From an uncultured Chloroflexia bacterium (GTDB lineage: Bacteria; Chloroflexota; Limnocylindria; Limnocylindrales; CSP1-4), in assembly GCA_963791725.1 (NCBI GenBank), contig CAWBTQ010000008.1, positions 360,359-424,358 of the forward strand: DNA of 64,000 nucleotides, written 5' to 3'. The notes under the pieces are model-generated. The model was not told where the DNA came from and did no database searches. It was given only the letters and a program-made list of their open reading frames with translations. The translations under genes and the position numbers were made by a program. Position 1 is the first letter of the stretch. Every line of letters begins with the position of its first letter. This document shows, piece by piece, positions 37,545 to 41,349 of the stretch.

Positions 37545-39242
37545 CTAGAGGGCCCGGACGGTGGCTCCACCATCGACCAGCACCCCTCCCTCGCTTCCTC
37601 CAAGGACTTCGTTGTGGTCGAGCGTGGCAGTTGCGCCATCGGCCACCCAGATGCCCGGGCGGCGGGAGTTCTCGACGGTGTTGCGCTCGATCACTGCAGA
37701 CACCCCGGGATCAGAGACCGTGATGGCGCCTCCCCCGTTACCGGACAGCCGGTTCGCGATGATCTCAGCCGACGCGCCGTCGTGGACATAGATTTCTTCA
37801 CTGGCATTGTCCCGAAGGGTGTTCTCGCGTAGAACGGCGTGGGTGCCCGCTCCCACGACCGTGATCGCCGGTTGGTCGTTCTTCCATATCTCGTTGCCCT
37901 CAAGGAGGGCTTCGGCGCCCGCGTGGATGGCGATCCCGTTGCTCCGGTTGTCGTGGACACGGTTGCGCAGCGCCTCGATGTGGCCGCCCATGGTCACGAT
38001 GCCGGGGTACGCATTCTCGAAGACGTCGTTCCCATCCAGAACTGCCTTTGCATCGGCGGCGATCGAAATGCCTGTTCCGCGGTTCCCGTACACACTGACC
38101 CCGCGCAGGACGAGGTCGGTGCCTGTCTTTTCCACAAAGACGCCCCCGTTTGCGCCACTGACCTCACCACCATCTGCCACGAGCCTCGCTCCGCCGCTGG
38201 CGAACAGCCCGAACTTCGCGGCGTCGCTCACCAGGCAGTCCCGCAAATCGAGCCTTGTCCCCTGTCCTACCGCCCGGACCCCGCAAGTTCCGCCGACGAT
38301 CGCGACCCCGGCAACCTTCGCGACGGCCCCTTCCGCCACGGCGAGACCGGTCTCGCTGGCCTCCAGACGCCCCCCCGAGACGTCTACGAAAGTGTCCGGA
38401 TCACCGGCGAAGATACCGACCACCGACGCCCGCACCACGTTGCCATTGCCCACGAACCGGCCGCCACCCCCGACCAGAACCCCCGCATCCGGGCATCCGC
38501 TGATCCTGCTCGCTCGAAGCTCGGCCGTCGACCCCTGATCGGCGACGAAAACGCCGACGCGTGTGTTCGCGAATTCGCATTTCTCGACGAGCGCTGCCCC
38601 GCCTTTGTCGACGTAGACCGGCTGTCCCCGACTGTCGCGGAAGGCGCAGCGTCGAATCTCTGCGCTGCTGGCTCGGCTTACCCAGAGGGCGTCGGAGATC
38701 CATTCCGAGAATTCACAGTCCTCGATCAAGCCCGTGGCACCACCGACGACCGCGATGCCCCCTGTAACGCGATGAACGCGGCTGCGGCGCACTTCAACAC
38801 GGGTGTCGGGCTTTCCCGTCATGATCGCGAAGCCGCTGGCGGCCGAGATCGAGCAGTCCTCGATCTGGAGCCGGCCCGCCCGAAGCTCGATCACAGCGAC
38901 CTTCGGCTCCCTCGTCGGCGGAATGGGCTCAGCCGCAGTTCCGCGGCCGACGAGACGTCCTAGCCCTCCCGCTTTCGGCTGGCCTTGCCATACCGTGAAA
39001 CCGCGAACGGTTACCGATCCCGCCGCCGTGACGCAGGTGCCGGTCCCCACGATCCGGACGGACCCTGGCGCTCCGTCGGCCACGAGCTCGAGATCGCGGT
39101 CGATAGCGACCAGTTCCTCATAGGTCCCGGGCCGGACGAGGATGCGACCGCCCGGTGCCGCCGCGGCGATCGCACTCGAGATCGTCCTGTGATCGGCCTG
39201 CCCAGTCTGGGCCACAACAGTCGTGACGACGCTGACGCCCAT
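37545..39242 (-). CDS. right-handed parallel beta-helix repeat protein (pectate-lyase/NosD-like fold), no obvious signal peptide
   Basis: A 565-aa protein with a characteristic start (...TISSAIAAAAPGGRILVRPGTYEE...), then more than 15 degenerate beta-helix repeats rich in G/N/V/D (...GNDVFENAYPGIVT...NRSNGIAIHAG...). Confidence 0.75.
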   Translation of the reverse strand: MGVSVVTTVVAQTGQADHRTISSAIAAAAPGGRILVRPGTYEELVAIDRDLELVADGAPGSVRIVGTGTCVTAAGSVTVRGFTVWQGQPKAGGLGRLVGRGTAAEPIPPTREPKVAVIELRAGRLQIEDCSISAASGFAIMTGKPDTRVEVRRSRVHRVTGGIAVVGGATGLIEDCEFSEWISDALWVSRASSAEIRRCAFRDSRGQPVYVDKGGAALVEKCEFANTRVGVFVADQGSTAELRASRISGCPDAGVLVGGGGRFVGNGNVVRASVVGIFAGDPDTFVDVSGGRLEASETGLAVAEGAVAKVAGVAIVGGTCGVRAVGQGTRLDLRDCLVSDAAKFGLFASGGARLVADGGEVSGANGGVFVEKTGTDLVLRGVSVYGNRGTGISIAADAKAVLDGNDVFENAYPGIVTMGGHIEALRNRVHDNRSNGIAIHAGAEALLEGNEIWKNDQPAITVVGAGTHAVLRENTLRDNASEEIYVHDGASAEIIANRLSGNGGGAITVSDPGVSAVIERNTVENSRRPGIWVADGATATLDHNEVLGGSEGGVLVDGGATVRAL

Positions 39243-39267
39243 GCGCTCGGCTCCTCATCTCGTAGAC

Positions 39268-39330
39268 CCGTCTCGGGCCGTGACGAGCCAATTCTACGGG
39301 CTGCCCACACCTTCGGGCAGGCTCCGAGAC
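39268..39330. other. nested inverted repeat / hairpin (GTCTCGG...CTGCCC-N8-GGGCAG...CCGAGAC) between the transglycosylase-protein stop and the beta-helix gene start
   Basis: The outer 7-bp and inner 6-bp arms are perfectly complementary. Could terminate the upstream minus-strand gene or act as an operator for the beta-helix gene. Confidence 0.35.
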
Positions 39331-39423
39331 CGTCCGACATGTCGACTTGTCGTTTCGCCCTCGAACGCGCCGAGCCACGTGGATAGTCGTCGGCCGCGCG
39401 CAACAACAGCGCCGGTCGGGTGA

Positions 39424-40452
39424 TTAGTACCAGCCGACTCCGTTGCGGAACGCCAGAGCGGCACATGGCGATCCATAGCGGCCGATCATGTAGTCGACGC
39501 CCCACTCCGCCTGAGCCACCGGGTTATCCCGCCACGCTCGATACAGCCAGGCGGTTTCGGCATCGCCGGCCTTGCCCGCCGCCGCGGCCCTGGCCTCAGC
39601 CCAATTGGCCAGCTTGCTCGCCGGATTCGCCTGGGGCAGGCCGTAGGCGCCGCTGGTCTTGTTGACGGCGTGCGGATTCCATCGCGCCTCGTACTCGAAT
39701 ATCAGGCTGGCGCACTGAGACTGAGCCAGGCCCCAGCGCCTATCCACCCTCGTGCCCAATCGAGCGACCAGGTAATTCCTGGCGTCCTGGACCGTCGGAA
39801 TAGCCATCAACCCGACCGCAGATGCTGCCGCGAGGGGGGCGGCAGCCGGGATGGTCGATACCGGTTCCATCGCGATCACCACGGTGGACGAGGTAGCCTC
39901 CGGCGTCGGTTCCGGCGTCGGTTCCGGTGTCGGGCCCGAGGTCGCCGACGGCCGCTCGGTGATCGACGGAAGACTCGCCATCTGGGCCGTGTCGGCGGCG
40001 ACGATGGCTACCGGAGATCCACCGGCGGACAGACCACCGACGGGCACACGGTCGAGCGGCACGGCGCCGGCGGAGGCGGGTGGATTGACGGCCAGGGCCG
40101 AGCCGGCAACGACGACCGCGAGGAGAGCGGCGCATGCGCCGGCCTGCGAGATGCCCCGCAGGCGGTCGCCGAGAACGAGACTGCGGGCTTCAAGGCATCC
40201 GCGACCACGATACCGGGCAAGAGCCGCGAACTCCCCGTCGGGGATCGGGAATTCGATGCCCCACTGATCGAGCGCCTCGCGACGCTTCGGCGGCAACGTC
40301 GGGATCGAGAGGCGCCAGGCGGAAATGGCTCCGGTAAGGTTCGACGATGTCGGCGCCACAAACTCATAGGGATCATCGGGTAGCAGCGGGAATTGGATAC
40401 CCCATTGGTCAAGGGCATCGAGAGACGACCGCGAGGCCGCAGTTTGGCGCAT
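39424..40452 (-). CDS. membrane-anchored protein with N-terminal DQWGI(Q/E)FP tandem repeats, one TM helix, a TPEPTPEP linker and a C-terminal IsaA/SceD-like lytic transglycosylase domain
   Basis: Two N-terminal repeats (LDALDQWGIQFPLLPDDPYEF / REALDQWGIEFPIPDGEFAAL) conserved at the peptide level, with synonymous DNA differences. TM segment GACAALLAVVVAGSALA. C-terminus CASLIFEYEARWNPHAVNKTSGAYGLPQA...WGVDYMIGRYGSP resembles the SLT-like domain with a catalytic Glu. Confidence 0.65.
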   Translation of the reverse strand: MRQTAASRSSLDALDQWGIQFPLLPDDPYEFVAPTSSNLTGAISAWRLSIPTLPPKRREALDQWGIEFPIPDGEFAALARYRGRGCLEARSLVLGDRLRGISQAGACAALLAVVVAGSALAVNPPASAGAVPLDRVPVGGLSAGGSPVAIVAADTAQMASLPSITERPSATSGPTPEPTPEPTPEATSSTVVIAMEPVSTIPAAAPLAAASAVGLMAIPTVQDARNYLVARLGTRVDRRWGLAQSQCASLIFEYEARWNPHAVNKTSGAYGLPQANPASKLANWAEARAAAAGKAGDAETAWLYRAWRDNPVAQAEWGVDYMIGRYGSPCAALAFRNGVGWY

Positions 40453-40630
40453 GAACGGACTGTCGCGGAAACGCCGCCTGATTCAAACCGTACGAGCGGC
40501 GGATTCCCGGAGCGCCGGATGTACTGCCGCCGCCTGACTGTCGGCGGCTGACGGCAGCGCGTCAATCAGCCGCGTCGGTCATCTCGCGGAATTGCGCTCA
40601 TACAACCGTACCGCCCAACGTGAGCGAACG

Positions 40631-40664
40631 AAAAGGCGCCCGGGTTCAGGGCCCGGGCGCCTTT
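40631..40664 (-). terminator. strong bidirectional intrinsic terminator (13-bp perfect stem AAAGGCGCCCGGG/CCCGGGCGCCTTT, 7-nt loop, A/T runs on both sides)
   Basis: Lies 18 nt downstream of the secreted-protein gene stop (40682). aaaaGGCGCCCGGGttcagggCCCGGGCGCCtttg. Confidence 0.65.
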
Positions 40665-40681
40665 GCCGCAAGCGAACCAGG

Positions 40682-41164
40682 CTACCAGCCGGTAACGGCG
40701 AACCAGCGGTCCACGCCCGGCGCCGGAACCCCGGCGAAGAAGACCGCCGGCGCGAGGCAGGTCGACGGCATCGCGATCGGCTGGTCGAGCTGCGCGTCGC
40801 CGGCCGAGGAGAACGGAACGACGGAGGACATGGCAACCGGCGTCCCTGCGCAAGTCAGGATGGCCTGTCCTTCAGGGATGGGGTTGGTACCGGCATGGGG
40901 GCCGGTCGCCAGAACCAGGCCCTCAACCTGCACCTGCAAGCGCCCGCTCGCGGAGATCGAGGCCGAGCCGGCCCGGATCCGCCAGGGCAGGCCGCCAGCC
41001 TGGACACCGAAGAGCGTCTGGTTCACCTGCGCCGCGGGCAGTCCGGCCATCGACGATTGGAAGTGCGGCGCGCCGCCTGTATCCGCCAGGACTGAGAGCG
41101 ACGTGGCCGCGAGAAGGGCGCCGATAGCGATTGCGATGCCGGTCAGGCGAAGAGTCCGAAGCAT
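40682..41164 (-). CDS. small secreted protein with signal peptide, unknown function
   Basis: An internal ATG with AAGGAG 7 nt upstream gives MLRTLRLTGIAIAIGALLAATSLSVLA, a predicted Sec signal peptide, then a 130-aa Gly/Ala/Pro-rich domain ending ...RWFAVTGW. Confidence 0.6.
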   Translation of the reverse strand: MLRTLRLTGIAIAIGALLAATSLSVLADTGGAPHFQSSMAGLPAAQVNQTLFGVQAGGLPWRIRAGSASISASGRLQVQVEGLVLATGPHAGTNPIPEGQAILTCAGTPVAMSSVVPFSSAGDAQLDQPIAMPSTCLAPAVFFAGVPAPGVDRWFAVTGW

Positions 41165-41349
41165 GATCTTCTCCTTCAGTACGGTTACGGGACAGGCTAC
41201 GTAGCCGTAGAGGAGGCAGTTTCCGCTGCGAGTCTGGTCCCACGACGCGCGACCGGGAGCGGGCCAGGCTCGACGACGCCCTGCGGGCGCGTGTACCACG
41301 TGGCGACGCGACTCGGTTGCCGCCCGAAACGATCTGCCAGAGTTGAGGC

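Follow-up and report, generated by a model that had tools for sequence, protein, structure and literature searches.

A duplicated DQWGI(Q/E)FP motif in the predicted cytoplasmic tail of a putative peptidoglycan-cleaving enzyme from Ca. Limnocylindria

Introduction

Why should an enzyme that presumably cuts the cell wall carry two copies of a conserved peptide on the side of its hydrophobic segment that is predicted to face the cytoplasm? The question is raised by a gene found in a 64,000-nucleotide stretch of DNA (the window, positions 360,359 to 424,358 of contig CAWBTQ010000008.1) from an uncultured bacterium of the Limnocylindria, Chloroflexota. The gene encodes a 342-aa protein that consists, in this order, of an N-terminal tail, a hydrophobic segment, a Pro/Thr-rich linker and a predicted lysozyme-fold domain; the name given to this family in public sources is "hypothetical protein". 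A preliminary description, made from the sequence alone, had reported the open reading frame (ORF), a transmembrane-like segment, a TPEPTPEPTPE linker and a C-terminal block containing CASLIFEYEARWNPHAVNKTSGAYGLPQA, all of which were found again in the present work. The reading that we propose, and whose chances we regard as evenly balanced, is that the protein is a wall hydrolase, either bitopic or secreted with its tail retained, and that this tail carries docking motifs for a cytoplasmic partner. The features of the gene and the protein are as follows.

39424..40452, minus strand: complete gene of the 342-aa protein, from the ORF list, with an ATG start and the stop codon at 39424-39426
40360..40422, minus strand: Repeat 1, LDALDQWGIQFPLLPDDPYEF, aa 11-31 (L11-F31), direct repeat D1
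40387-40416, minus strand: core motif of Repeat 1, ALDQWGIQFP
40303..40326, minus strand: conserved inter-repeat block ISAWRLSI, aa 43-50 (family consensus ISSWRLSI), from column conservation
40219..40281, minus strand: Repeat 2, REALDQWGIEFPIPDGEFAAL, aa 58-78 (R58-L78), direct repeat
40144..40215, minus strand: basic juxtamembrane stretch RYRGRGCLEARSLVLGDRLRGISQ, aa 80-103, from flanking-charge analysis
40087..40143, minus strand: single hydrophobic segment AGACAALLAVVVAGSALAV, aa 104-122, from Kyte-Doolittle hydropathy; AlphaFold helix 102-117
39811..40086, minus strand: disordered Pro/Thr/Ala-rich linker including TPEPTPEPTPE, aa 123-214, with predicted local distance difference test (pLDDT) scores mostly below 50; large indels in the alignment make its length differ widely among homologs
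39427..39810, minus strand: C-terminal domain of predicted lysozyme fold, aa 215-342
39688-39690, minus strand: candidate catalytic Glu255, invariant in 81 sequences

The repeats are translated and conserved as peptides

Both repeats consist of the core ALDQWGI(Q/E)FP and its flanks, and at the DNA level they form a 37-nt direct repeat of 78% identity whose copies are 141 nt (47 codons) apart. Over 13 aligned core codons the two copies differ at 10 nucleotides. Third codon positions account for 6 of these, of which 5 are synonymous and one replaces D by E; the others are found in the first aligned codon (two differences, S/R) and in the L/R and Q/E codons (one each). The preliminary description, which had noted two 21-aa repeats with mostly synonymous third-position changes and had taken this as a sign of purifying selection on the peptide, was right on both counts: the ratio of nonsynonymous to synonymous variation per site (pN/pS), calculated by the Nei-Gojobori method from 18 sequences (the window and 17 loci, the frameshifted locus L016 being excluded), is 0.30 in the core of Repeat 1 and 0.35 in the core of Repeat 2. 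The catalytic domain (0.28) is under selection of the same strength as the motif, and the values are 0.58-0.78 in the spacers, the transmembrane segment and the linker, with 0.78 for the linker. Variation within the repeat cores is highest at third codon positions, followed by first and then by second positions.

In each of the 18 Limnocylindria loci the reading frame runs uninterrupted through the N-terminal region. All changes of length in the tail preserve the reading frame, i.e. the indels, the duplications (47 aa in homolog P0005, 20 aa in L107) and the spacer deletions (P0082, P0090, P0093, P0094 and L125). The ATG is invariant in 41 sequences, and no conserved internal start codon was found in the alignment of 18 sequences. 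One homolog only, P0099, has its annotated start at the hydrophobic segment; since its contig (L014) carries the whole repeat region, in frame, ahead of that start, the truncation reflects the choice of the gene caller. The repeats are translated and they are under purifying selection at the peptide level.

The motif is conserved in about 130 distinct homologous proteins. Among 81 aligned sequences Q16 and L23 of Repeat 1 are invariant and W17, G18, I19 and F21 nearly so, while in Repeat 2 Q63, W64, G65 and E67 are invariant. Repeat 2 is the stricter copy, and DQWGIEFP is found in 85 of the 120 proteins that have at least two copies. The consensus unit of the family, D-A-L-D-Q-W-G-I-(Q/E)-F-P-h-x-x-(D/E)-(D/E)-h-A-x-h, is about 20 aa long. 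The ISSWRLSI block between the repeats is dispensable, because the five variants with a short spacer that are listed above lack it. In the spacer of one homolog a pentapeptide, SLARW, is expanded up to four times.

As to distribution, a protein search returned about 100 full-length homologs with 50-77% identity, in which both repeats are kept. A genome scan found 18 loci with the full architecture, all of them in Chloroflexota metagenome-assembled genomes (MAGs) labelled Limnocylindria/Limnocylindrales; lineages outside Limnocylindria match only in the C-terminal part, from residue ~160-250 onward. The family is thus specific to a subgroup of Ca. Limnocylindria, uncultured Chloroflexota of soil and peat. 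Four homologs (L132, L016, P0098 and P0105) are frameshifted in the tail or in the C-domain; L132 lacks both motifs after codon 4 and L016 lacks the C-terminal end. These are either pseudogenes or errors of MAG assembly.

The tail resembles a disordered region with short linear motifs

In the full-length AlphaFold2 model, built from an 81-sequence alignment, residues 1-100 have a pLDDT of 31-43 and show no secondary structure, as opposed to about 90 for the C-terminal domain of the same model. Over 134 distinct proteins the motif is present twice in 118, three times in 2 and once in 14, and the start-to-start spacing is mostly 47 aa with a range of 16-62. Low pLDDT together with variable copy number and spacing is what one would typically see for short linear motifs, here in a disordered tail made up of a duplicated 47-aa unit, and the term "repeat domain" used in the preliminary description is not upheld. 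From motif 2 to the hydrophobic core there are likewise about 46-47 aa, and the recurrence of ~47 aa in both distances suggests an ancestral 47-aa unit. Different units have been duplicated independently, the 47-aa unit in P0005 and a 20-aa motif-2 unit in L107, so that the tail appears to evolve through small tandem duplications.

The motif appears to be confined to this family

Pfam and NCBIfam gave nothing for the tail even at E up to 10, which agrees with the earlier failure to match the repeat to a known family. When a tail profile was run against 1.84 billion representative proteins, nine proteins were found: six family members or frameshifted versions of them, a divergent family member (P0122), a short protein (P0124) and one DUF7487 protein (P0123). 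A six-frame scan of the window and the homolog loci detected no motif on other proteins. Reuse of the motif on other proteins was considered and set aside, as only the weak DUF7487 match and the chimera-like short protein had turned up.

DUF7487 is a Pfam repeat family without an assigned function. P0123 (408 aa) shares with the tail the short motif (L/M)-x-x-W-G-(I/V)-E-(F/Y/H)-P-(I/M)-x-x-x-E-(I/F), with an hmmsearch E of 2.4e-6 summed over three stretches and a hhalign match of 19 columns at 69% probability. It contains about nine tandem repeats of the form ...(R/N)WGVE(H/Y)PMQ..E(I)K.K.., and the family differs from ours in that its ~9 repeats of ~29 aa are tightly packed and occur in soluble proteins with other domains. 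The similarity, which covers ~19 residues, would be a resemblance at the level of the motif and is not significant as homology. From these searches the DQWGI(Q/E)FP motif appears to be unique to the present family.

The first 40 residues of P0124 (128 aa) correspond to the N-terminus of the family with motif 1, while the remainder is unrelated, with a weak likeness to a Swt1-like HEPN domain (E=0.059). The protein may have arisen by gene rearrangement or from a chimeric assembly, or the motif may really have been reused here on a different protein.

The C-terminal domain is probably a divergent lysozyme-fold enzyme

The NCBIfam model NF052397 (AggPromo_Cterm), which describes the lysozyme-like domain of secreted Lactobacillales and Actinomycetota proteins, matches the C-terminal 100 aa (aa 244-342) over its full length (positions 1-80 of 80) with 75.9 bits against a cut-off of 40; the isolated C-domain scores 80.1 bits. 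The nearest relatives of the domain outside Chloroflexota are found in Streptomyces, Nocardia, Kitasatospora, Bifidobacterium, Pediococcus, Facklamia and Saccharibacteria. The NF052397-type relatives differ from the present family in that they match only from residue ~160-250 on (most from ~236-251), and none of them has the DQWGI tail.

A glutamate followed by a G-L-x-Q-type motif, as expected for the SLT family, is present: E255 and residues G268, A269, Y270, G271 and Q274 of the block GAYGLPQ are invariant in 81 members, and most of these positions are invariant also in an alignment with distant homologs. Family-1 lytic transglycosylases (Slt70, MltE, MltC, Cj0843c, phiKZ gp144) are similar in two respects, i.e. 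the modelled helical lysozyme-like fold and the position of the invariant E255 upstream of the invariant G-A-Y-G-L-P-Q block, which we take to be the counterpart of their E-S ... G-L-M-Q motifs. No relative of the C-domain was found in PDB by sequence. The model of the isolated domain is helical with a pLDDT of 92.9, and the top eight Foldseek hits are Cj0843, turkey lysozyme, phiKZ gp144 and Slt70 with E values of 0.16-1.2. We conclude that the C-domain, as modelled, is likely to be a divergent lysozyme-fold domain that cleaves glycan strands, either a transglycosylase or a muramidase.

The domain had been described as an IsaA/SceD-like transglycosylase. The lysozyme/transglycosylase type stands, while the likeness to IsaA/SceD is only remote, the best family being AggPromo_Cterm. 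The S. aureus proteins IsaA and SceD are similar in being secreted and in having a C-terminal lysozyme-like domain, and IsaA differs in that its signal peptide is short and of the usual kind and that it lacks a repeat tail in the cytoplasm. An unverified IsaA sequence scored 25.2 bits against NF052397, which is below the cut-off, and it matched no IsaA-specific model; the BLASTP alignment of the C-domain with the same sequence is not significant (E=19).

Predicted membrane topology

The Kyte-Doolittle profile has one strong hydrophobic window only, with a 19-residue maximum of 2.29 at aa 104-122. Averaged over the family, the 20 aa that precede the hydrophobic segment carry a net charge of +3.5, as opposed to -0.4 behind it, a conserved AGSA(L/S)A is located at the end of the segment (aa 116-121), and two cysteines of the C-domain, Cys247 and Cys330, are invariant. 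Because of these four features, i.e. the single segment, the charge asymmetry, the AGSA(L/S)A and the two cysteines, the tail is predicted to be inside and the catalytic domain outside. This is in line with the preliminary description, in which the repeats were placed in the cytoplasm before a single transmembrane helix. Chloroflexota are grouped with the monoderm Terrabacteria (PMC10608941), so "outside" most likely means the wall compartment. Judged from its sequence, the hydrophobic segment may serve as a signal anchor, or it may be the h/c-region of a signal peptide. A Tat signal was discarded, as the consensus before the segment, GRLRGIS, does not have the twin-arginine pattern S/T-R-R-x-F-L-K.

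What might the tail do?

According to the docking reading, the protein would be a membrane-targeted enzyme of the lysozyme/lytic-transglycosylase fold that cleaves the glycan strands of peptidoglycan. It would be oriented N-in/C-out, with a disordered tail of ~100 aa in the cytoplasm, one hydrophobic segment across the membrane, and a flexible Pro/Thr-rich linker that would bring the catalytic domain into the wall. The two, rarely three, motifs of the tail would form a multivalent docking site for a cytoplasmic partner, and the docked partner would position, gate or time the extracellular hydrolase, i.e. it would exert inside-out control over localisation, activity or export. In this respect the hydrolase would be like other bitopic wall enzymes, whose cytoplasmic segments link them to regulators in the cytoplasm. 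Of this model, the topology, the docking function and the nature of the partner are predictions. Of the functions that the preliminary description had suggested for the tail, partner binding seems the most reasonable one; for an anti-sigma-like role there was neither a family match nor, by Pfam, a sigma factor in the eight neighbouring ORFs. The divisome and the elongasome are candidate machines for the motif. One might also think of the sliding clamp, since Q-W-G-I-E-F would fit the loose clamp-binding pattern Q-x-x-hydrophobic-x-F.

It is useful to compare this arrangement with the MltG proteins of Firmicutes, which provide the closest functional precedent. They also have a cytoplasmic N-terminal segment, one transmembrane segment, an extracellular glycan-cleaving domain and a regulatory input; in Enterococcus faecalis the cytoplasmic segment of MltG is phosphorylated by IreK, with functional consequences (PMC12369325). 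The differences are that the catalytic domain of MltG is of the unrelated YceG type, that its tail has no sequence similarity to ours, and that the link to a kinase is one described for MltG.

There are several points that weigh against the docking reading. Firstly, the topology is derived from hydropathy and charge rules only, and the hydrophobic core is only ~14 residues long and is followed by a canonical small-x-small AGSALA, so that it may be cleaved, which would favour the signal-peptide alternative discussed below. Secondly, the low pLDDT of the tail could in part reflect a shallow alignment of closely related sequences. Thirdly, the Pfam profile SLT (PF01464) matches below its gathering threshold (16.5 versus 21.3 bits, E=0.0064, profile positions 16-47 of 117). 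Finally, the search for a partner gene by conserved adjacency in 18 loci gave no candidate, and no constant neighbour gene was found when 15 ORFs of the window were compared with these loci by tblastn.

The main rival to the docking reading is that the N-terminal region is an extended, cleavable Sec signal peptide, in which the hydrophobic segment and AGSA(L/S)A are the h- and c-regions and signal peptidase I cuts after Ala121. The enzyme would then be released into the wall, and the motifs of the n-region, ~100 aa long, would come into play ahead of export or in its course, for instance in the choice of route or site; the YSIRK/G-S motif of Gram-positive cocci is known to pick an export route or site in this way. 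We consider this possible but rather doubtful. The hydrophobic core is short, the AlphaFold helix comprising only 16 residues (102-117), the AGSA(L/S)A is conserved with small residues at the would-be -3 and -1 positions in most homologs, and the mature part would start with the flexible linker. On the other hand, in 13 of the 81 homologs the residue at -1 would be Val (AGSASV or AGSALV), which is disfavoured for signal peptidase I, and an n-region of 100 aa far exceeds, to our knowledge, that of any extended signal peptide described. In an alternative form of this explanation the n-region would be kept in the membrane as a stable fragment and serve in signalling, for which there is a precedent in the stable signal peptide of S. 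aureus IsaA that feeds the AyrRABC secretion-stress response (PMC5727409). Either form changes the fate of the tail, yet a cytoplasmic reader of the motif is still needed; the docking and the signal-peptide models differ mainly in the cleavage of the segment, and each of them needs such a reader.

It is also conceivable, though improbable in our view, that the motifs, rather than binding a protein, are membrane-interface anchors, embedded in the cytoplasmic leaflet, by which the enzyme is held or clustered in certain lipid environments. The core W-G-I-x-F-P-(L/I) is indeed rich in interfacial aromatic and aliphatic residues, the motif is modelled as disordered in isolation, and the steps between the copies and to the hydrophobic core are equal (47 aa). 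However, the strict polar positions (D15, Q16, G18 and E67) are more typical of a specific protein interface, and AlphaFold2 predicts no amphipathic helix.

A folded cytoplasmic signalling domain, e.g. of the anti-sigma type, is very unlikely. The layout of a cytoplasmic N-terminus, one transmembrane segment and an extracellular C-terminus is that of single-pass anti-sigma factors, but this is a comparison of architecture only, and residues 1-101 match no family at E up to 10, the tail has a pLDDT below 45 and no secondary structure, the motifs vary in spacing and copy number, no sigma-factor family is found by Pfam among the eight neighbouring ORFs, and no neighbour is conserved. A folded repeat domain and an anti-sigma domain were rejected on these grounds.

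Finally, the scenario that the preliminary description had itself named as its possible undoing, namely that homologs begin at the hydrophobic segment and the repeats are a non-coding 5'-untranslated or RNA feature, can for practical purposes be dismissed: it could draw on the annotation of P0099 and on the strong nucleotide conservation of the upstream leader, but the contig of P0099 carries the full tail in frame, as do 18 of 18 loci, the repeat region shows codon-position periodicity and low pN/pS, every indel, duplication and deletion keeps the frame, the ATG is invariant in 41 sequences whereas internal start codons are not conserved, and no Rfam family matches, so that non-coding repeats with a downstream start codon are ruled out by frame conservation and pN/pS.

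A conserved upstream element

The gene is preceded by a conserved stretch with the following parts.

40453..40545, minus strand: conserved upstream element (-1 to ~-93), near-invariant in 19 and then in 41 sequences
40537-40542 and 40459-40464, minus strand: GACAGT of the two CGACAGTC boxes, within the element
40513-40528, minus strand: GGCAGTACATCCGGCG, invariant, within the element
40490-40494, minus strand: CGTAC, within the element
40481-40486, minus strand: TTGAAT, within the element

In 18 of 18 genome loci hardly any variation is seen over the ~93-100 nt directly before the ATG, and the conservation stops abruptly beyond CCGACAGTCAGG; in an alignment of 41 sequences the mean pairwise identity is 0.78 for positions -100 to -1 and 0.45 further upstream. 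GACAGT is located at exactly -12 to -7 in every sequence, with TTGAAT-like hexamers 16 nt upstream of it, and the second CGACAGTC is at about -85; between the two boxes there is an imperfect palindrome, GTACATCCGG-N15-CCGGTCGTAC. In a metagenome scan, 60 stretches fitted the pattern GGCAGTACATCCGG-N18-22-CGTAC; 27 of them contain the whole element, always directly before this gene, and the remaining ones are an ambiguous stretch (L114) and 32 unrelated sequences that agree with the pattern only. From the genome loci and the metagenome scan the element appears to be exclusive to this gene family. Direct reading of the sequence showed no Shine-Dalgarno-like purine run before the ATG, and scans for consensus sigma-70 promoters and terminators around the gene gave nothing. 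We speculate that the element may be a leaderless-mRNA promoter plus operator.

An RNA function of the leader found no support. Riboswitches of the ydaO/c-di-AMP class often precede wall hydrolase genes; a riboswitch of this or another class in the leader or the repeat region was ruled out, since Rfam 15 gave 0 matches at E up to 1 on both strands of window positions 38900-41100. RNAalifold on 19 sequences gave -11 kcal/mol with a covariation term of ~0, and an all-pairs covariation scan of 41 sequences found no helix with more than one compensatory pair, so a structured leader RNA is unsupported. The pairings GTAC...GTAC and CCGG...CCGG are uninformative because they are invariant palindromes.

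The constraint extends into the coding region. Third positions of codons 2-15 are 81-83% identical in 41 sequences (codons 1-15 correspond to 40408-40452), and the synonymous variation per site (pS) of codons 1-10 is 0.22 versus 0.33-0.44 elsewhere. The first 70 nt of the gene had been described as using atypical A/T-ending codons, a claim that does not reach significance: 9 of the first 24 codons end in A or T as compared to 71 of the 318 others (binomial p=0.067), the span of the first 24 codons is the 22nd lowest of 320 sliding windows in the gene, and similar GC dips are found in neighbouring genes. What seems notable at the 5' end of the gene is a constraint at the nucleotide level that is continuous with the leader, rather than a codon bias.

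Genomic neighbourhood

The downstream neighbour (37545-39242, minus strand) encodes a right-handed beta-helix protein of 565 aa (Pfam Beta_helix, E=1.4e-80, NosD-like), which is found beside the hydrolase gene in none of the 18 related loci. The upstream neighbour, ORF 40682-41299 (205 aa), matches no family, and its adjacency is not conserved in other genomes. According to Pfam, the eight neighbouring ORFs comprise the beta-helix protein, a methyltransferase, a RibD_C protein, an aldo-keto reductase and four ORFs without a match. A conserved neighbouring partner gene was ruled out, as there is only loose regional synteny, in which a UbiE-type methyltransferase and a RibD_C protein recur over the 18 loci.

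A hairpin lies between the upstream ORF and the hydrolase gene.

40627..40664, minus strand: terminator-like hairpin, a 13-bp GC-rich stem followed by UUUUCGUU (-35.4 kcal/mol, z=-3.0)

It is located directly after the stop codon of ORF 40682-41299, so that the hydrolase gene is probably its own transcription unit; the consensus terminator scan had missed this hairpin. An A-run flanks its other side, and bidirectional termination is possible.

Implications

What is known in this protein is its kind, a putative lysozyme-fold wall hydrolase; what is new is the lineage-restricted, predicted cytoplasmic linear-motif tail and the dedicated upstream element. The control of potentially lethal wall-cutting enzymes from inside the cell is an open problem. 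Few mechanisms of coupling are understood, e.g. FtsEX-type activation, GpsB-binding tails and the phosphorylation of MltG, and nearly all of these cases come from model Firmicutes, Actinobacteria and Proteobacteria. The present family offers a compact, testable example from an uncultured class of Chloroflexota, with a duplicated motif under selection, a predicted cytoplasmic tail and a dedicated upstream element. As a tentative suggestion, DQWGI(Q/E)FP might be an undescribed docking motif by which, in monoderm Chloroflexota, a peptidoglycan-cleaving enzyme outside the cell is physically linked to a machine inside it, and together with the dedicated 100-nt cis-regulatory element it might make up a self-contained module of inside-out control. 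Without a partner the tail would be little more than a peculiarity of this lineage, with modest general importance; the discovery of a partner would provide a new interface between a regulator and a hydrolase, and the motif could be used as a handle for further searches.

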